Of a stretch of 20,975 nt of DNA, positions 12,828 to 20,758 are shown one piece after another. Source of the DNA: a virus; the UHGV virus genome UHGV-0216266; one strand, given 5' to 3'. The stretch's first letter is position 1. Each line of letters opens with the position of its first letter. The notes beneath the pieces were generated by a model. That model searched no databases, was not told the DNA's origin, and saw only the letters and a program-made list of their open reading frames with translations. Position numbers and translations under genes: made by a program.

Positions 12828-13373
12828 TTAGCGTCCCAATCTAAAGTTTAATTTTTCTCTTGGAGTCATTGCACGCCCAATAGCCCCATCTAATAAATGA
12901 CTATTTTTCTCTAAATGTTCACGCGCCCATGGCTGTAAGTTGAAAGCAAAACCGTAGATCATATCCCCAACACTGGTGGCTCTATAAGTAATCCCCTTAG
13001 CCACAAGTCCCCCCATGACCCCATCCTCAGGCCCACACATAAGTGAATTAACACCTTCGGTAATATAAGACTTTAAATATCCTTTTTCTTCTGCTGTTAG
13101 CTTCTCAAGGTAGGAAGTGCGTACCTTCTTAGCCTGCCTTTCACCAAGTAAGTCATAGAAAGAGAGATAGACTCTTGCAACTAAATAAGATACAGACAGT
13201 AAAAATGCAGGTCCAATAAAAATCCTATACTCATTACGAAAGCCATCAACAGCCACTTTTACTGCCAAAGAGTCTGGCAGAAAAAGTATAAGACCTAAAA
13301 CACATGTAATAGCCACAAGAAATGCTGCAGGTACTTTTCGAAAAAACTCTGCAACTCCAGTTATAACGTCCAT
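12828..13373 (-). CDS. Hypothetical two-TM membrane protein (accessory gene between portal gene and cos)
   Basis: 181-aa ORF in visibly AT-rich DNA (~37-40% GC on hand-counted lines, against ~55% in flanking phage genes). ATG at 13371-13373 with a GGAGG Shine-Dalgarno 10 nt upstream. Two N-terminal hydrophobic helices (AAFLVAITCVLGLILFL, IFIGPAFLLSVSYLVARVYL) and a ~110-aa soluble C-terminal domain. No family recognised. Confidence 0.6.
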   Translation of the reverse strand: MDVITGVAEFFRKVPAAFLVAITCVLGLILFLPDSLAVKVAVDGFRNEYRIFIGPAFLLSVSYLVARVYLSFYDLLGERQAKKVRTSYLEKLTAEEKGYLKSYITEGVNSLMCGPEDGVMGGLVAKGITYRATSVGDMIYGFAFNLQPWAREHLEKNSHLLDGAIGRAMTPREKLNFRLGR

Positions 13374-13462: not shown

Positions 13463-13481
13463 CTCGTATCCCCGCCACGCC
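13463..13481 (-). other. Candidate cos (cohesive-end) site
   Basis: The minus strand reads GGCGTGGCGGGGATACGAG. The first 13 nt match the 19-nt cohesive end I recall for phage 186 (GGCGTGGCGGGGAAAGCAT; P2 has GGCGAGGCGGGGAAAGCAC). Orientation points toward Q, as expected. Confidence 0.5.
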
Positions 13482-13526
13482 TGCCCGCTTTATGTAGTGG
13501 TTTTCATGCAGGTGCATAATCTACGC

Positions 13527-13550
13527 AAAAGCCCGCCAGTTCTGGCGGGC
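13527..13550 (-). terminator. GC-rich hairpin (GCCCGCCAG / CTGGCGGGC) with a U4 tail on the minus strand
   Basis: Perfect 9-bp inverted repeat at 13531-13550. The minus-strand transcript would end ...hairpin-UUUUGCG. No U-tract on the plus strand. Confidence 0.4.
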
Positions 13551-13823
13551 CTTAGCAAAAACGATCCTCAAACGATCATGCAATCTCATGCAGCATAGAC
13601 ATGCACAGACGAGTAAAGCGAATCGGACTTTACGCAAGGTGAACTCCTCAGCGGGCATAATCAGTATGTCGGAAGATCTCTAAAAATGAATAATTCGGTT
13701 AACAGGTATGCTTACAAAAGCATATATTTGATTAAAAATCATGTAAGGGGGAGGATCTCAAACTGAATCGCCACGGGTTTTACAAACTTCGATAGTCTCT
13801 CTAACGTTTCGGCTGAGGTCAAA

Positions 13824-14408: not shown

Positions 14409-14642
14409 TTAATGCAGCCAGCTGTCGTCTTCCCACACCTTCTGCATAATTTTCATCACTTGTTTTCTTTCTTCGTCCAGTTGCAGTCCGGTCAGTTCCA
14501 CACCGTTAGAGCTACCTTTGCGGATACGAATTACCGTTTTGGGATACAGGGGGCGCAGATTGCGGTAAAGCTCGGATTCAAGGGCGTCCAGTGTAGACTG
14601 GCTAATCTTCTGCTCTTTATCGATCATTATTTCAATGCGCAT
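14409..14642 (-). CDS. DinI-family protein (resembles the DinI-like C-terminal part of the 186 Tum antirepressor)
   Basis: ATG at 14640-14642 (MRIEIMIDKEQKISQSTLDALESELYRNLRPLYPKTVIRIRKGSSNGVELTGLQLDEERKQVMKIMQKVWEDDSWLH, 77 aa) with a GAGGTG Shine-Dalgarno. Similar to E. coli DinI (MRIEVTIAK...ETWESADDWFV) as recalled from memory. Confidence 0.7.
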   Translation of the reverse strand: MRIEIMIDKEQKISQSTLDALESELYRNLRPLYPKTVIRIRKGSSNGVELTGLQLDEERKQVMKIMQKVWEDDSWLH

Positions 14643-14652
14643 AAAAGTCACC

Positions 14653-14841
14653 TCAGCTGATGACATCCATTGAGCGGTTGTATTCGTGGGTTCTGATTTT
14701 TGCCATGAGTTCATCTGTCAGTTCAGAAACCCACTGCAGGGCCAGCCCCTTCTCTTCATCACTACACTCACTAGCCGCTACAAGCTTAAGAAAAAAATCA
14801 ATGCGCTGGAGCTTCAAAGACTCCAAAAAATAGTCCTGCAT
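14653..14841 (-). CDS. Small acidic protein, first gene of the LexA-controlled operon (possible Tum N-terminal-like module)
   Basis: 62-aa ORF. ATG at 14839-14841 preceded by GGAGG. Stop 10 nt upstream of the DinI-like start. Directly downstream of the LexA-box promoter. Confidence 0.55.
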   Translation of the reverse strand: MQDYFLESLKLQRIDFFLKLVAASECSDEEKGLALQWVSELTDELMAKIRTHEYNRSMDVIS

Positions 14842-14993: not shown

Positions 14994-17408
14994 TTAATAC
15001 AGGTTCCGCCACTTATCATCTTCCTTCAGACGCTGGTTCCGATAGAAGATACGCAGGCCTGCTCCTGACGGAATACTGCCACCGCGAAGGAGTAAATCTA
15101 CCTCTTTCTCGCTGCCATCAAATCCTCTGGACTTCAGTTCATAGACGAGCTGCTGTCGTTGATGGTCTGTAATTCGCTGTTTGTAGTTTCTACGCCGTTT
15201 CGGTTTCACCAGGCGTAACCTTGCAGCCAGTTCCCGGCGCTCTTTTTTGTTCATACTGTGCAGAAAATCGTGCAACTCCTTGTCATCCATGCGGGTAATA
15301 TCCGTTCTGGTGTCCCCATCAGCTGATTTATCTTTCTCCTGTTGGTTCAAATTTTCAGCAAGGGGACAGTTATTGCCACGAGTCCAAGGGGCGCAAGCGC
15401 CCTGGTCGGCTGCCGCCTCCTGAACGTCAACGGCTTTACGAACCATTTTCCACTTCACTGCATGAGTGCAGATCTTGCCCTCTGCAATGGGTGACCAGAT
15501 GCCATAAATACGAATGCCGTGATCGCCATAGGCGGTCGGCTCTTCGTTGATTTCATAAGCGGTTCTGATGAGGTGATATTTACGGGGAACCAGTACGCCG
15601 CCCTGCTTCATGATGTAGGTGGCAAAACAACCAGCATCAGCAGCAGCCAGAATGGCATCAAGACGCGGGTTATCCAGTACCGGCGCACCTGCTTTTTTGT
15701 CACCCTGTTGCCTTGCCGCCTGACCAGCCAGCAAGCGAAGTTCACGGTAAGCCTGACGCCCCGGAATACCAAAGAAGCGGAATTGCTGAACACGATGCAG
15801 AGACGCCCAGGCATTCACGTATTCAGCGTTATCACGCAGAGATTTACCCGTTTCCTTGCTGATCTCGCCAGCCAGACCACGACCGTCAATGTTCTTACTG
15901 ATATATTTCGCGATGTAGCTTGTCGGCGTTCCTTTGCGCGGGTTAATCAACTCAGACTTAAAGCGCGGCCCAGTGTTATTGCCCAGCTCCTCGCGGTCTT
16001 CACGGATGGCAAACTTACGCAGTAATGCAGTGATGGCACGGCGGTCTTTTTTGCGCATGAAACACAACAGGTGCCAGTGAACTGTGCCATCATGATGCGG
16101 CTCAGCCACCCGCACGCCATACCAGCGCAACCCGGCTTTGTGCATCGCCTTACGAAATGCAGCAAACATGCCGACCAGATAATCGCTGCTTTGTCTTACC
16201 GTCGCGTTTGTCCAGGTCGGGTTTGGTCTGCCGTTATTTAGCGTGGAATGGAAACGCGACGGACAGGTGATAGTGTAGAAAACGGCGCAGTCACCGCGCA
16301 TTTCCGCGATAAGCTCCAGACCTTTAACACAGGCCATCATCTCATTGCGGCGATGCGCAGGGTTGCTGCTGCTGGCGTTTACCACATCCTCCATGTCCAG
16401 CGTGTCGCCGTCTTCGTTCACCAGTTCATGAGAACGGAAAAACTCCAGCGACTTACGGCGCTGCTCACGTCTATGCATCACGGCTTCATAGCTGACATAA
16501 GGAGATGCTTTTTTGCTGACCAGGCAAACAGCGCGCAACTGCTCTTCCCGCCATTCGCAACGCATCTTCCATAATTTCCGATACCACCAGTCGGCGCACA
16601 ACATACGCGCCAGCGAACCCGGAATGAGTTCATAGGGCACGGGTTTACGGCGGTTTCTTTTCCGACGGAGTTGCTCAAACGCAGGTGGGATGACATCCAG
16701 ACGCAGGGTTTCCGCTGCCACCTTTTCCCATGTCTTGCGGATTTCTTCTGGCTTAACGTCATCGGTGGCATACAAATCACCACAAGCTGCATCAAGGCAC
16801 ATACTCATATGCGCAGCTACCAGGGTGGACAGGCGTTTCACCTGATCCTGACTCATTTCAGGCAGGATCAGCAGGCCGTCCAGCCCTTCATGGCTTGCCA
16901 TAAAGCGAAAAGATGCAGATAGCTGACTGTCGCGTACATGCTCCAGTCGTTCCAGACATGGCTTAATCGTCTCACGTAAATAGCGGGAATAAGCCTTTGG
17001 CCTGCCCAGGCTGCTGAAGTATTCAATACGTTGCATCAGCGGCTTGCTGATATGGGAAGGCTGGGCGTTGACGTCCGCCAGAATGACCATGTCTGAATTA
17101 AAACGCTGCTGCTCATGCGCCAGCTTTGCCCGGCTAATGAGCTTATCCTGCTCCATTTCGCGCTGGACAGGATCACGTGATTCATTAAAGAAATAACGCT
17201 CCCAGACCTGATCACTCAGTGCCTCGCGGCGCAACTGTTCCTGCTCGTTATCGGCAGCGTACAGAGTGATCAGGTTTGAAAGCGTAGAAACCGGCGCAAC
17301 TTCCGCCGGGTCCAGATAAGGGTTAATGGCCTTTTTCGTGCTGTTCCATGAGAATGCTGCGGCAGCCTCGTTAAAGCCGCAGCAGTTGTTCATATCGGCA
17401 TGACTCAT
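14994..17408 (-). CDS. A: Replication initiation endonuclease (P2 gpA-like rolling-circle initiator)
   Basis: 804-aa ORF. ATG at 17406-17408 overlaps the Dam stop (ATGA). Contains the His-hydrophobic-His motif VHWHLL typical of HUH-type initiators. Large size and position next to the early region match P2 A / 186 A. Confidence 0.8.
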
Positions 17409-18262
17409 GCACGTACTCCGTACACGGCAGAACTATCCACGCCACGCGAATAATCAAATCCCATCCAGCAGCGCGGCCCGGAAACAGCAATGATTTCTGT
17501 TGCTGATTTACCCTCGCCAGCTGCCACACCGATGCTGCGTTTTACCTTGATATAGTGGTGAGTAAAATTGCGATACAGCGAACGGATCAGGGATGTGTCA
17601 CTGTTAGAAACAATGACCGGATGTCCTTCTGATGACCGATGTTCAAGAACGGATGCCAGGTGATACTGGTCATCTTCAGTGAAACCATCAGTGTGATAAC
17701 CGGAAAACGTACCGTCATATGGCGGATCGCAATACACCACATCTCCCGCCTTCAACATCGTCAGCGTTTCATCAAAGCTGGCGCAGATAAACGTTGCTCG
17801 CTGGGCTTTTTCTGCAAATGTGCGAAGTTCTTTTTCAGGGAAATACGGATTTTTATAATTACCGTAGGGAATGTTGAAATGCCCGCTCTTGTTATAGCGA
17901 CATAAACCACGGTAACCGTGACGATTGAGATACAGGAAATATACCGCTTTCATGAAATCAGTAATTTCAGTTGAGCAGTTAAACTCCTGCCTTATGTTGT
18001 AATAAGCCACCTCCCTGTTTGCGATCTCAAATAAAACTCTGGCGCGAGATATAAACGATTCACAATCAGCGGCAACCTTTTTATAGAGGTTGATTAAATC
18101 AGGATTAATATCCGCAACCAGATAGCTGGGATAATCCGTTTCCATCATCACAGCACAGGAACCCGCGAAAGGTTCAACCAGTCGCGGGCCAGCAGGAAGG
18201 TATTTTTTCAGTTCTGGCATAATGGCGGTTTTATTTCCCGCCCATTTCAGGATGGTGCTCAT
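17405..18262 (-). CDS. DNA N6-adenine methyltransferase (Dam family), orphan
   Basis: ATG at 18260-18262 ([11 protein letters not shown]..., 285 aa) with a GGAGG Shine-Dalgarno. Motifs KWAGNK, EPFAGS (SAM-binding FxGxG) and DPPY (catalytic motif IV of N6-adenine methyltransferases). No adjacent nuclease gene. Confidence 0.85.
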
Positions 18263-18486
18263 ACAGCACCTCCGTTGTAATGTTTGCCTTTCAGTTCTGC
18301 GATTTCCTGACAGGTAATGCAAAGCTGCACTCCCGGAATGGCGCGGCGTCGTGCTGGCGGAATTGGCGCTTCACATTCAATGCAAAGTACGCGTGACACG
18401 CCCGGTGATTTGGCACGGGCTGCACGGATATGGCTCTGGCGTTCTTCTTCAACGCGCTGCTGTACGAGATCCATTGCATCAGCCAT
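18259..18486 (-). CDS. TraR/DksA-family C4 zinc-finger protein
   Basis: 75-aa ORF with CIEC-x17-CITC (CxxC-N17-CxxC). ATG at 18484-18486. Its stop overlaps the Dam start (ATGA). Confidence 0.7.
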   Translation of the reverse strand: MADAMDLVQQRVEEERQSHIRAARAKSPGVSRVLCIECEAPIPPARRRAIPGVQLCITCQEIAELKGKHYNGGAV

Positions 18487-18719
18487 TAGTGGATCTCCTG
18501 CGCTTCGTTCTGGATTGCTTCAGCAGTCACGCGCAGCAGTTCTGCCGCTTCCACGTGGTTTAGCTGGCGGGATGAGATATAACACGCCAGGCTATCAAGG
18601 CGAGCAGCCATTGCTTCAGCCCTTGCCCGGCGTTCTTCCAGACGAGCCTCTGTCAGTAAAATATTAAGCCCTGCGTCATCCGGTCCGGTTTTAGTCGTGA
18701 GGGTTTCAATATTACGCAT
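18486..18719 (-). CDS. Hypothetical early-region protein
   Basis: ATG at 18717-18719 (MRNIETLTTKTG..., 77 aa) with an AGGAG Shine-Dalgarno. The track ORF begins at TTG two codons earlier. Its stop overlaps the TraR-like start. Confidence 0.5.
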   Translation of the reverse strand: MRNIETLTTKTGPDDAGLNILLTEARLEERRARAEAMAARLDSLACYISSRQLNHVEAAELLRVTAEAIQNEAQEIH

Positions 18720-18786
18720 AATCAATTCTCCTGAATTTAGATAAAGGGATGCCCGGCGGGTTTACGCCATTAATTTCATTAGTTGG

Positions 18787-19128
18787 TTAATTCGGCATGG
18801 TTAGCCGTCTGGGAAATAAGCTCACCACTGCACGAAAATGATTCATTGCTTTAATCAACTCCCGCTTTTCGTCAGTGGTCAGCTCATTAATGCTGATGCT
18901 ATGACGTTCAGCTGGAATTTTTGCCATAAAGAATATGGCAGCCAGTGCCCTTTTATTTTGTTCATTATTGATATCCCATGGATCACGCATATCTTTAATA
19001 AACCGCTCAAGCTCTGACTCAATATTCAGGCCAAAAACTTTCGCCCTTAACTCCGCAATGTGATTAAGTCCATTCAGGCGTTCACCGGGGCTTAATGGAA
19101 CAGTTGCTGCAGTGCCTTCAATAGCCAT
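18787..19128 (-). CDS. Hypothetical early-region protein
   Basis: 113-aa ORF, ATG at 19126-19128. By position it corresponds to the 186 fil/dhr or P2 orf78-83 block, but I do not recognise the sequence. Confidence 0.45.
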   Translation of the reverse strand: MAIEGTAATVPLSPGERLNGLNHIAELRAKVFGLNIESELERFIKDMRDPWDINNEQNKRALAAIFFMAKIPAERHSISINELTTDEKRELIKAMNHFRAVVSLFPRRLTMPN

Positions 19129-19292
19129 TTGTTCCCCCGTTTTTTCGTAGATAGTTCTGCCAGCAATTCATCTTGTGAACGGCACGGATGCCAGCGTTTA
19201 CCATCCTCCCCCATGATCCAGCCGTGACCGTAATGCATTGCCGGGCTTTGTTTAACCAGCAGCGATGCAAATGATGGTTCTTTCGTCAGCAT
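19092..19292 (-). CDS. Hypothetical small protein immediately downstream of cII
   Basis: ATG at 19290-19292 (MLTKEPSFASLLVKQ..., 66 aa) with a GAGGTG Shine-Dalgarno. The track start at 19322 would overlap cII. Overlaps the next gene by 37 nt. Confidence 0.4.
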   Translation of the reverse strand: MLTKEPSFASLLVKQSPAMHYGHGWIMGEDGKRWHPCRSQDELLAELSTKKRGNKWLLKALQQLFH

Positions 19293-19299
19293 AAGCACC

Positions 19300-19809
19300 T
19301 CACAGCAAACCAAATGAAGCACCGAGGCCAGTCACGGTATCAACTGCACTCGCCATCGCAGGATTAGCCTGTAAACGGGCCTGCAATGAAACAGCCGCCA
19401 GCGCCATCAGTCGTGTTACAGAGTTAATGCTGCTGATAGCATCACGACGACCGGCACAGGTTTTTACATCGCCAGACACCGCACCTGCAGCAACACGCCC
19501 GATCTCTGCGGTTGCACTCATGACGTAATGTGGCAGTTTCTCTTTTGCCACCTCATTAATCGGTACACATGGCAGACAATGAATCTGTGCCAGAAAACCA
19601 TCTACCAGCGTTGAATCTTCAGTCAGATCGGTAAGCAGCCAGATTTCTGGTGCGGTTAATAAATGAGGCTGAGCTGGGTTCAGCTTGTTCCGCAGAATCT
19701 GCACATTCATGCCTGCACGTTCTGCCAGTTGCACCAGATTGTGGCGCAGTGCAAATGCACGACAGGCTTCATCAAAATGTGGATGTTTGGAAACTTGGTA
19801 ATCAAACAT
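19300..19809 (-). CDS. cII: Phage regulatory protein CII (186 CII / CP76 family)
   Basis: ATG at 19807-19809 gives 169 aa ([76 protein letters not shown]...). Length and N-terminal sequence are as I recall for 186 CII. Follows the apl-like gene. Confidence 0.65.
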
Positions 19810-19841
19810 GGTCAATGCCTCTGATGTATTTCAGAATCGAA

Positions 19842-20063
19842 CTAATTAAGGTTTAGATTGCATTCTGAAAGCGCATCAACGGTCATTGCTGCTATGTTGA
19901 TCATCACTTTTTCGCGTTTTTTATCTTTGCGCAGACGGTGACGGATAAGGCGTCCATCAGCCAACATATCATTGATGGTATCGATGGATAGCCCTGTCAG
20001 CTCGCTATAGCGTTCAATAGTCACATGAGGCGTGGTAAGAGTGATTGAAATGTTAGGTCTCAT
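19842..20063 (-). CDS. apl: Apl/Cox-like small DNA-binding protein (excisionase and repressor of the lysogenic promoter)
   Basis: 73-aa ORF, ATG at 20061-20063. Divergent from cI and first gene of the lytic early operon. Probable HTH around [18 protein letters not shown]. Assignment is by position and size. Confidence 0.5.
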
Positions 20064-20135: not shown

Positions 20136-20164
20136 AACATACGATCGCACAGTGAAATCGTCAA
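20136..20164 (-). promoter_or_regulatory. Candidate early lytic promoter (pR-like) for apl-cII
   Basis: Minus strand TTGACG (plus 20159-20164), 17-nt spacer, TATGTT (plus 20136-20141), ~65 nt upstream of the apl ATG. Lies inside the cI-apl intergenic region, consistent with 186-type face-to-face promoters. Confidence 0.3.
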
Positions 20165-20188
20165 GATAAAAGTTCACTTGGAGTGACC

Positions 20189-20758
20189 ATGAATTTGGAG
20201 AAAGGCGGACGAGGCGCCATAGAGCGCATGGTAGAAGCTTATGGATTCAAGACTCGACAGGCGTTGTGCGATCATTTAGGAATCTCTAAAAGTACACTCG
20301 CCACACGCTACATGCGTGACTCATTCCCAGCAGAATGGGTAATCCAGTGCGCCCTTGAAACAGGAACCTCGCTTAATTGGCTCACAACCGGGCATGGTTC
20401 AAAGCAAACTTCAGGTAATACAAATACTATGGAAGTTGCTAAATATGTATTATCTGATGGGGCCTTGTGTGAAGACGGTTTTTATATTTTCGATAGAGAA
20501 TTTCTACCGTCGGCATTCAAGAATCTTTTTGTAATCACAGATAATAATTCTGAATTTATTTGTGATAAGGAATTTGATGATATACGTGATGGTAAATGGG
20601 TAATAAGTATTGATGGCGAAATAACGATCCGTGACATTACTCGTTTACCCGGTGGAAGAATCTTCGTCGAGGGTGGAAACAGAGCCTTCGAATGTAAGAT
20701 AGAAGACATTGAAATAATTGGTAAAATTATAAGCTTAACAGTCAAGTATGTTAAATAG
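20189..20758 (+). CDS. cI: CI-type immunity repressor (186 CI-like)
   Basis: ATG at 20189-20191 with GGAG 5 nt upstream (MNLEKGGRG...). The track ORF starts at GTG 20183. 189-191 aa against ~192 aa for 186 CI by memory. N-terminal HTH (TRQALCDHLGISKSTLATRY). Divergent from apl. Confidence 0.65.
   Translation: MNLEKGGRGAIERMVEAYGFKTRQALCDHLGISKSTLATRYMRDSFPAEWVIQCALETGTSLNWLTTGHGSKQTSGNTNTMEVAKYVLSDGALCEDGFYIFDREFLPSAFKNLFVITDNNSEFICDKEFDDIRDGKWVISIDGEITIRDITRLPGGRIFVEGGNRAFECKIEDIEIIGKIISLTVKYVK

Follow-up and report, generated by a model that had tools for sequence, protein, structure and literature searches.

A solitary Dam-type adenine methylase gene in the slot upstream of the replication gene A of a P2-like phage

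Results

Four tightly packed genes on the minus strand

The window analysed here is the whole stretch of 20,975 nucleotides of the UHGV virus genome UHGV-0216266. Its minus strand carries, in this order, the genes for a DUF2732 protein, a TraR/DksA zinc-finger protein, a Dam methylase and a gpA protein, which meet at the junctions TAATG, ATGA and ATGA (Table 1). The DUF2732 and TraR-like genes have a single base in common at TAATG. At the TraR-like/Dam junction, GTATGAGC, the Dam ATG lies at 18262-18260 and the TraR-like TGA at 18261-18259, and at the Dam/A junction, GCATGAGT, the ATG of A lies at 17408-17406 and the Dam TGA at 17407-17405; the two ATGA overlaps that an earlier note on this DNA had described for these three genes are therefore present. 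Every start in the block is preceded, 7-13 nt upstream, by a Shine-Dalgarno-like GGAG or GGAGG. The true start of Dam is the ATG at 18262, giving 285 residues, rather than the TTG at 18322 given by the ORF lister. GC content drops to 0.43-0.47 over Dam from 0.52-0.56 in its flanks, which fits the nature of a cassette. The remaining genes of the window are SieB-like, DinI-like, regulatory, morphogenetic or of unknown function, and Fil (cell-division inhibitor family, PF10893) is encoded in the same early operon as Dam.

Table 1. Coordinates of the features discussed in the text
Feature	Position	Strand	Basis or remark
DUF2732 gene	18486..18725	-	PF10809 4.9e-28; heads the compact block of four genes
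TraR/DksA-family C4 zinc-finger gene, 75 aa	18259..18486	-	PF01258 1.9e-11
Dam-family (D12 class) N6-adenine DNA methyltransferase gene, 285 aa	17405..18262	-	PF02086 4.1e-75
gpA-type rolling-circle replication initiator gene A, 804 aa	14994..17408	-	PF05840 2.7e-127
ATGA stop/start overlap, TraR-like to Dam	18259..18262	-	Read from sequence
ATGA stop/start overlap, Dam to A	17405..17408	-	Read from sequence
Probable ori (nick region) inside A	15369..15400	-	21/31 matches to P2 ori, 19/31 to 186 ori
Candidate early lytic promoter, pR-like TTGACG-17-TATGTT	20136..20164	-	Consensus match only
cos, 19-nt cohesive end GGCGTGGCGGGGATACGAG	13463..13481	-	Flanks match 186 end junction
GATC pair 11 bp apart, candidate Dam target	13563..13577	.	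85 and 96 bp from cos

The TraR-like protein scores 44.2 bits against PF01258 (cut-off 24.9) and 65.8 bits against TIGR02419, C4_traR_proteo (cut-off 59.7), and its translation shows the pattern C-x2-C-x17-C-x2-C, as befits a TraR/DksA C4 zinc-finger protein; its homologues are gp33 of 186 and orf82 of P2. The A protein is a P2 gpA-type rolling-circle initiator (PF05840, Phage_GPA, 424.7 bits), 31-33% identical to the A proteins of 186 and P2. When the three are aligned, the HUH-type metal motif H438-H439-D-G-T-x-H444-W-H446 and the paired active-site tyrosines Y498/Y502 show no variation. The probable ori sits at the place in A that is equivalent to that of the P2 and 186 ori.

The candidate pR-like promoter would drive apl-cII-fil-...-TraR-Dam-A and has a GATC, at 20143, in its spacer; scans for promoter-like and terminator-like signals between 14800 and 20975 gave totals at chance level. 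According to its record, 186 has a terminator, tM1, near the beginning of A. The corresponding region here contains a GC-rich hairpin of 9 bp, 24-53 nt into A (17355-17384), but with a z-score of only -2.0 and no U-run following, it is a weak candidate for an analogue of tM1. Between DUF5347 and DUF2732, where an analogue of 186 tR1 was sought, the fold was no better than that of shuffled sequences.

A phage paralogue of Dam that likely recognises GATC

The methylase matches PF02086 (MethyltransfD12) over profile positions 1-253 of 253 with 253.2 bits (cut-off 22) and the TIGR00571 'dam' subfamily with 317.6 bits (cut-off 114.85), bearing out its previous assignment to the Dam family. It stays below the cut-off of the host-Dam equivalog NF008152 (286.8 bits vs 441) and, judging by its sequence, it is a phage paralogue and not the host enzyme. 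Structures of E. coli Dam (EcoDam) match it at 1.1e-72, with 47% identity over 258 aligned residues. KWAGNK occupies residues 6-11 and the catalytic motif IV DPPY, invariant in 64 unique relatives, residues 179-182. Both had been listed in the earlier note; the FxGxG listed with them reads in fact FAGSC (32-36), the last Gly being replaced by Cys. This form of the AdoMet-binding motif I is also invariant in the 64 relatives and aligns to FVGAG of EcoDam; it leaves the profile score unaffected but departs from the literal FxGxG pattern. Complete occurrences of the gene number 69, and 68 of these are intact.

What is the target of the enzyme? With EcoDam (PDB 2G1P/4GOL) it has fold family, motif order and DPPY in common. 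Unlike EcoDam, it has Arg (R118) at the position of N120, FAGSC for FVGAG and five residues fewer after DPPY, it differs in the 22 residues at its C-terminus, and it is phage-borne and presumably expressed in lytic growth only. The roles in GATC reading of EcoDam residues K9, Y119, N120, L122, R124, P134 and Y138 have been described (PMC4417163), and all of them except N120 are identical in the phage protein (6/7). Among the 64 unique relatives, down to 60% identity, the contact residues are kept in 63-64, the exceptions being one Y119 variant and one P134 variant. Because the residues with which EcoDam contacts GATC are conserved in this way, GATC is likely the target of this Dam as well.

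A relaxed or non-GATC specificity might nevertheless be proposed, given that the base-contacting N120 is replaced by R118 and that five residues of the loop after DPPY are missing, both changes being fixed in the clade together with the terminal Cys of motif I. We consider this very improbable, since the residues that read the first base pair (K9 and Y138) and those that read the third and fourth (L122, P134 and R124) are kept in 63-64 of the 64 relatives, and the family is named after an element reportedly endowed with Dam methylase function. In addition, non-specific M.EcoGII-like enzymes are of the other (beta) class, to which PMC7544214 assigns M.EcoGII; the enzyme studied here is a full-length D12 (alpha) member, and a non-specific methylase of the M.EcoGII type can be ruled out.

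No partner restriction endonuclease was found among the genes of the window, some of which encode hypothetical proteins, and the annotation of the complete Fels-2 genome lists none. With the TraR-like gene and A as its neighbours, Dam is a solitary (orphan) methyltransferase, in agreement with what had been noted before.

The gene block is widespread and already annotated

The gene is an ordinary Dam-type adenine methylase of Fels-2/retron-Ec67-type P2-like prophages, and its presence next to A is real, ordinary and already known. The four-gene block is annotated in the RefSeq phages Cartapus and Fels-2 (STM2732-2729) and in a prophage of K. pneumoniae Kp52145 (PMC7826664); gene order and sizes match in all three and nothing material differs. 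In Fels-2, STM2730 is the same gene in the same place, within a series of DUF2732, DksA/TraR zinc finger, 858-bp Dam and gpA. Phage records with the block number 71, and about a quarter of the complete E. coli genomes have it (1240 of 5426); the identical Dam protein was found on 471 contigs. One member of the 90% cluster of Dam bears the name 'retron EC67 DNA adenine methylase'. References for this methylase of 186-related prophages are the article of Hsu, Inouye & Inouye from 1990 (PNAS 87:9454), the title of which gives a Dam methylase function for the Ec67 element, and that of Dodd & Egan from 1996 (Virology 219:115); a search of the literature for experimental work on P2-like Dam returned nothing further. 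Unlike the Ec67 element, the copy described here comes without a retron; Ec67 and Ec86 are inserted between the portal gene and cos, a site which the SieB-like gene occupies here. As reported, the finding is not new: the gene, the genes around it and the family name can be found in RefSeq annotation and in publications from 1990 onward, which the earlier note had not recognised.

Solitary adenine methyltransferases of lytic growth are likewise found in T4 (T4 Dam, of the same D12 family as the enzyme studied here, 2.9e-18), in P1 (P1 Dam), in Stx phages (M.EcoVT2Dam, whose target is GATC; PMC6602927) and in HP1 (orf13). HP1 is also P2-like, and its small orf13 methyltransferase (173 aa) closes the early rep operon, downstream of rep.

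The overlap with A is not specific to the methylase

The ATGA sequences at both junctions are stop/start overlaps of the kind found in translationally coupled gene pairs. Coupling of Dam and A is suggested by analogy with the annotation of 186, in which orf84 and A overlap by 4 nt, exactly as Dam and A do here, and in which a note states that translation of A appears to need translation to the end of the upstream orf84. In 186, this upstream gene is PAPS-reductase-like, and in P2, the gene that overlaps A by 11 nt is orf83, a DUF5405 gene and not a methyltransferase; the comparison of overlaps rests in each case on annotated records. In close relatives, the place of Dam is either empty or taken by PAPS-reductase-like genes, a C5 methylase or DUF3850, and some have another gene between Dam and A. 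We conclude that the position of Dam, between the TraR-like gene and A, is a slot for exchangeable, non-essential cargo. Because of the 186 orf84 note, the P2 orf83 and the variable content of the slot, the overlap reflects the expression of A and the presence of this slot, and not a Dam-specific link; the earlier suggestion that coupling to A says something particular about the methylase finds no support, and this corrected reading is one outcome of the analysis. Co-expression with A upon infection or induction is still the natural reading, since Dam belongs to the early lytic operon and lies directly upstream of A, overlapping it.

GATC density differs between Dam-carrying and Dam-less clades

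For GATC, the observed/expected ratio (O/E) comes to 0.78 in the window and to 0.76 in Fels-2, compared with 0.20 in P2 and 0.13 in 186. The latter two are Dam-less, and in both of them no other of the 256 tetramers is as depleted as GATC. In IMG/VR loci, fetched at lengths of up to 22 kb so that some host flank is possible, the median O/E was 0.80 for 69 Dam-carrying loci with a window-type A, 0.34 for 81 Dam-less loci with a 186-type A and 0.25 for 81 Dam-less loci with a P2-type A. HP1, with its different and small methyltransferase, has an O/E of 0.63. The contrast is clear and fits a role of Dam in keeping phage DNA fully methylated, but it covers only three A-gene clades (plus HP1) and is thus not phylogenetically independent. 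Moreover, within the clade of the window, GATC is not depleted in the roughly ten members that truly lack Dam (tblastn counted 13 loci, a few of which are cut contigs). Their pooled O/E is 0.77-0.78, with a range of 0.55-0.94, so that there is no fixed link between carriage and density from genome to genome. A search of these Dam-less members for a second methyltransferase with a (D/N/S)PP(Y/F/W) motif yielded one candidate ORF (L066), which has no Pfam match.

The ori homologue contains no GATC, the nearest site being about 70 bp off. Therefore, there is no lead for a control of replication through GATC at the origin, of the type known at oriC, and this possibility is unsupported.

A conserved GATC pair beside cos

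In the clade, 64 unique sequences next to cos were compared, and the two GATC sites of the pair are kept in 62 and 61 of them, respectively. They are retained where the spacer has diverged and also in Dam-less clade members. Three TGCATG repeats are conserved here, the third of which directly adjoins the first GATC; 186 shares this repeat architecture, but has GCATGCGTC at the GATC position. On the pair side of cos, the window-type clade has a mean of 3.3 GATC in 350 bp and on the other side 0.7, while the values in the P2 and 186 clades are 0.6-0.8 in the same comparison. The pair is a candidate methylation-sensitive packaging signal.

In P1, Dam regulates pac cleavage, which is established for that phage only. 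Dam could, in a similar way, serve packaging or late-cycle control if methylation of the cos-side GATC sites modulated terminase or SeqA binding and only fully methylated circles were packaged. Both the conservation of the pair across a diverged spacer and the one-sided GATC excess, restricted to the window-type clade, point in this direction. We give the idea a slim chance, however, because Dam-less members have retained the pair as well, which makes it independent of the phage enzyme, because its conservation could stem from another bound factor or from the adjacent terminator, and because it is a single locus that was noticed by inspection after the fact. A joint reading, for which the chances are small, is that P2-like phages of enterobacteria answer a single host constraint in two ways, either by purging GATC almost completely, like P2 and 186, or by carrying a Dam cassette beside the replication gene at a normal GATC density. 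In the latter, methylation might have been co-opted for packaging, in analogy to P1 pac, through the GATC pair, whose two sites are a helical turn from each other and adjoin the terminase-repeat region of cos.

Discussion

Why would a P2-like phage carry a Dam of its own? The earlier note had proposed anti-restriction and the control of replication or packaging; the present data rather favour full methylation of GATC-rich phage DNA, and they provide one weak lead for packaging and none for replication. The explanation that we favour, with a probability of roughly 0.6, is that the gene is a solitary Dam of the Fels-2/Ec67 type, held in an exchangeable slot, which keeps the GATC sites of the replicating phage fully methylated. 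In a 186-like temperate phage, Dam would be repressed in the lysogen along with the rest of the early lytic operon and, like A, be produced once the phage infects a cell or is induced, A being probably translated by ribosomes arriving from whichever gene precedes it, as annotated for 186 orf84/A. Host Dam might be limiting for DNA that replicates fast and reaches a high copy number; endogenous Dam has been described as rate-limiting for high-copy DNA (bioRxiv 10.1101/2020.06.22.160242). Under such conditions, the phage enzyme would bring the rolling-circle products, with about 3.5 GATC per kb, to full methylation, and the phage would avoid the costs of unmethylated or hemimethylated GATC, namely incision by MutH, binding by SeqA and, in the next host, methylation-sensitive restriction at GATC. 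P2 and 186, which lack Dam, apparently evade these costs in another way, their genomes having been purged of GATC. The contrast between Dam-carrying and Dam-less clades bears, in this respect, on why enterobacteriophages avoid GATC, a question for which GATC avoidance, poor methylation of phage DNA and effects of MutH have been reported (PMC5014478).

The last of these costs might also be the main one. Phage orphan methyltransferases are, as a rule, proposed to act in anti-restriction, Dam has been counted among the functions that protect against type II systems (10.1101/2020.06.22.160242), and an enzyme expressed early and without a partner nuclease would suit it, leaving progeny pre-methylated against GATC-cutting MboI/DpnII-type systems of the next host. 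We see a modest chance, well short of even, that this is what the gene is for. According to the phage record, the hosts of the clade are Escherichia, Klebsiella and Salmonella, all Dam-positive enterobacteria, and for this reason the host enzyme would leave progeny at least partly GATC-methylated anyway. This explanation also overlaps with the maintenance of full methylation, because full methylation serves both.

Could the host chromosome be the target instead? Overproduced Dam might hypermethylate it to the benefit of the phage, either by shortening the hemimethylated window, by disabling mismatch repair or oriC sequestration, or by changing Dam-sensitive expression. The early operon that contains Dam also encodes Fil, and the adjoining gene is a member of the TraR/DksA-like family of RNA-polymerase regulators, which means that the operon already has host-directed functions. 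However, the sequence contains no pointer to host targets and the difference in GATC density between clades would be left unexplained, and we therefore regard host manipulation as a far-fetched explanation.

Finally, phage Dam is a known trigger of retron-type abortive infection (bioRxiv 10.1101/2020.06.22.160242), so that carriage of the gene has a defence-related cost.

An ordinary prophage gene

The Dam gene singled out by the earlier note is an ordinary prophage gene, long known and widely annotated. The block that begins with DUF2732 and ends with A, the gene for the rolling-circle replication initiator gpA, spans 3.7 kb and matches 71 phage records, and the RefSeq phage Cartapus, a 98% match, is annotated with DUF2732, a DksA-like zinc finger, Dam and gpA. 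The 1082-bp span to which the note had drawn attention was found in 1240 of 5426 complete E. coli genomes, where PGAP labels the products DNA adenine methylase, TraR/DksA regulator and replication endonuclease. In Salmonella phage Fels-2 the genes run in the order of the window (STM2732 to STM2729), and its record notes a likeness to 'retron EC67 DNA adenine methylase', and a K. pneumoniae Kp52145 prophage carries an identical set of genes with identical lengths (222, 510, 201, 342, 234, 228, 858 and 2415 bp; PMC7826664). The exact Dam protein occurs on 471 contigs, and its 90% cluster has 4038 members, one of them named after Ec67. This name stems from Hsu, Inouye & Inouye 1990, whose title credits that element with Dam methylase function, and Dodd & Egan 1996 locates retron Ec67 within a 186-related prophage. 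What is worth pursuing is only a contrast between clades in GATC content and a pair of GATC sites beside cos.

The right third of the window is the early region, on the minus strand, of a 186-like temperate phage (see the table). The junctions of DUF2732, zinc finger, methyltransferase and gpA are, in order, TAATG, ATGA and ATGA, the last two as claimed, and each start codon of this four-gene block is preceded by its own GGAG-type ribosome-binding site. Since gene order, junctions and the KWAGNK and DPPY motifs were all confirmed, the feature is real and was correctly described except at motif I, which reads FAGSC and not FxGxG. Two GATC sites fall in the switch region, the 119 bp that separate cI from the apl-position gene, and the one at 20143 is inside the best pR-like promoter, in the spacer directly before the -10 hexamer. 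Downstream of A, a DinI-family (Tum-like) gene and a 62-aa ORF, an arrangement common to Fels-2, Cartapus and Kp52145, probably form an SOS-controlled antirepressor module as known from phage 186.

Features of the window and of cargo-slot genes in comparison loci (L-numbers)
Feature	Position	Strand	Remark
CI-type repressor	20183-20758	+	early region
Candidate pR-like promoter	20164-20136	-	consensus match only
GATC sites of switch region	20109, 20143
Apl/Cox-position gene	19842-20063	-	early region
CII	19300-19815	-	early region
Fil	19092-19322	-	early region
DUF5347	18787-19128	-	early region
DUF2732	18486-18725	-	early region
TraR/DksA C4 zinc finger	18259-18486	-	early region
D12-class methyltransferase (Dam)	17405-18262	-	early region
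gpA	14994-17408	-	early region
Hairpin in A	17355-17384	-	24-53 nt into coding sequence
ori homologue inside A	15369-15400	-	likeness to known ori
62-aa ORF	14653-14841	-
DinI-family (Tum-like) gene	14409-14714	-
GATC pair	13563, 13574		spacing 11 bp; 85 and 96 bp away from cos, A-proximal side
Hairpin with T-run	13525-13551	-	between GATC pair and cos
cos (cohesive end)	13463-13481	-	flanks match 186 end junction
SieB-family gene	12828-13373	-	PF14163, 4.5e-25
C5 cytosine methylase in slot	L062 4998-6182
DUF3850/ASCH in slot	L063 8812-9108
Unknown ORF in slot	L033 3346-4176		276 aa

A Dam-family enzyme

The methyltransferase matches PF02086 across the entire profile (4.1e-75), passes the TIGR00571 'dam' subfamily model while failing the host-Dam equivalog model, and shares 47% of 258 aligned residues with E. 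coli Dam (EcoDam; E = 1.1e-72 against solved structures). Of the EcoDam residues with a role in GATC reading or intercalation (K9, Y119, N120, L122, R124, P134 and Y138; PMC4417163), the only one to differ is N120, which is Arg. The six other contact residues and DPPY are kept in 63-64 of 64 unique IMG/VR relatives, down to 60% identity, the exceptions being one Y119 variant and one P134 variant. With these residues conserved and 68 of the 69 complete IMG/VR copies intact, the pattern indicates that the enzyme is functional and under purifying selection, GATC being its most likely specificity. A non-specific enzyme of the M.EcoGII type was set aside because M.EcoGII is of the beta class (PMC7544214). 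Damaged copies are rare: in one locus (L039 6093-7009) the gene is split into ORFs of 189 and 117 aa, and another (L049 6712-7215) carries an inserted IS1 transposase upstream of the gene.

The earlier note saw no partner nuclease, and no nuclease candidate was found next to Dam or in the rest of the window, nor a restriction enzyme in the complete Fels-2 annotation; the portal-to-A cargo consists of a SieB-like protein, a 141-aa ORF without family assignment, the 62-aa ORF and the DinI/Tum-like protein.

GATC content follows the clade

What might such an enzyme be for? Under a Markov expectation, the 21 kb of the window contain 74 GATC sites (observed/expected, O/E, 0.78) and Fels-2 has an O/E of 0.76, whereas the Dam-less phages 186 and P2 have 14 sites in 30.6 kb (0.13) and 25 in 33.6 kb (0.20). 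Over the whole genomes of 186 and P2, GATC is the most depleted of the 256 tetramers, other 4-bp palindromes being unremarkable. We then sorted IMG/VR loci around A by their A gene and scored Dam by tblastn. This Dam was found in none of the 81 loci with a 186-type A (median O/E 0.34) or the 81 with a P2-type A (0.25; about 0.3 GATC sites on average per A gene), and in 69 loci with a window-type A (0.80). Another 13 window-type loci scored as lacking it, about ten of which are truly Dam-less, a few being cut contigs, and their median is 0.78. Since these members are not depleted, the link between Dam carriage and GATC density across the three clades compared is at the level of the clade, not of the genome. 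HP1 is a fourth point of another kind, with a small DNA methyltransferase downstream of rep and an O/E of 0.63 over 16 kb.

PMC5014478 (citing McClelland 1984 and Deschavanne & Radman 1991) reports that enterobacteriophages avoid GATC, that host Dam methylates phage DNA poorly and that phage yield is affected by MutH and Dam status; on high-copy DNA, endogenous Dam is rate-limiting (10.1101/2020.06.22.160242). The simplest reading is that the window clade would tolerate GATC at normal density thanks to a Dam of its own, which would keep rolling-circle products fully methylated. Replication control, also proposed in the earlier note, receives no support, because no GATC was found in the ori homologue inside A.

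Coupling to A and the cargo slot

The position of Dam implies early lytic co-expression with A, presumably from the candidate pR-like promoter, but no mechanistic link between methylation and initiation, since the content of the slot is variable and coupling to A is generic. According to the phage 186 record, translating orf84 as far as its end 'appears necessary for translation of A protein'; this upstream gene, which overlaps the A start by 4 nt, is unrelated and PAPS-reductase-like, and the same record places early in A a terminator, tM1, that would act without A translation. In P2, the gene overlapping A from upstream is orf83 (DUF5405). The Dam/A overlap belongs to the expression of A; the functional ideas put forward were reasonable but generic, and the weight placed on this coupling is not justified. 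A GC-rich hairpin of 9 bp near the start of the window's A gene recalls tM1 (-20.2 kcal/mol for the 71-nt stretch holding it, z = -2.0) but has no U-run.

Across 80 IMG/VR loci whose A proteins share 77-99% identity with the window's, the zinc finger-to-A interval may be empty or hold Dam alone, a DUF3850/ASCH gene with Dam, Dam with a PAPS-reductase-like gene, with a C5 cytosine methylase or with unknown ORFs, or the PAPS-reductase-like gene alone (this gene is present in L028, L031, L065, L068, L075 and L079). GC content is 0.43-0.47 across Dam (17500-18300) against 0.52-0.56 in the flanking TraR-like gene and A, which is consistent with a horizontally acquired cassette. Because the content of the interval varies and GC dips at Dam, Dam is one among several cassettes of a cargo slot. 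The slot also gathers DNA modification-related genes other than Dam; that of phage 186 holds an exonuclease-like gene, DUF5405 and the PAPS-reductase-like gene.

The cos region

The two sites of the GATC pair are present in 62/64 and 61/64 unique window-clade sequences (~95%; loci L004-L083 and L244), are kept where the seven intervening bases have diverged, and occur also in Dam-less members of the clade. The first directly adjoins the third in a conserved array of three TGCATG repeats. Both 186 and P2 have these repeats and lack the pair, 186 reading GCATGCGTC where the first GATC stands. Per 350 bp at cos, GATC averages 3.3 on the side of the pair against 0.7 on the opposite side. P1 pac, a methylation-sensitive site, offers a model for comparison, and by analogy the pair might be a methylation-sensitive terminase or SeqA site, although we consider this unlikely for a pattern noticed post hoc.

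Two further elements lie nearby. One is a strong hairpin with a T-run after it (GGCCCGCCAGAACTGGCGGGCTTTTGC), conserved in the clade and matching 186 t95b in position; the other is a SieB-family superinfection-exclusion gene in the interval that separates the portal gene's end from cos. According to Dodd & Egan 1996, retrons Ec67 and Ec86 take the place of DNA at the portal/cos site of 186-related prophages, and this site looks like a defence-cargo site.
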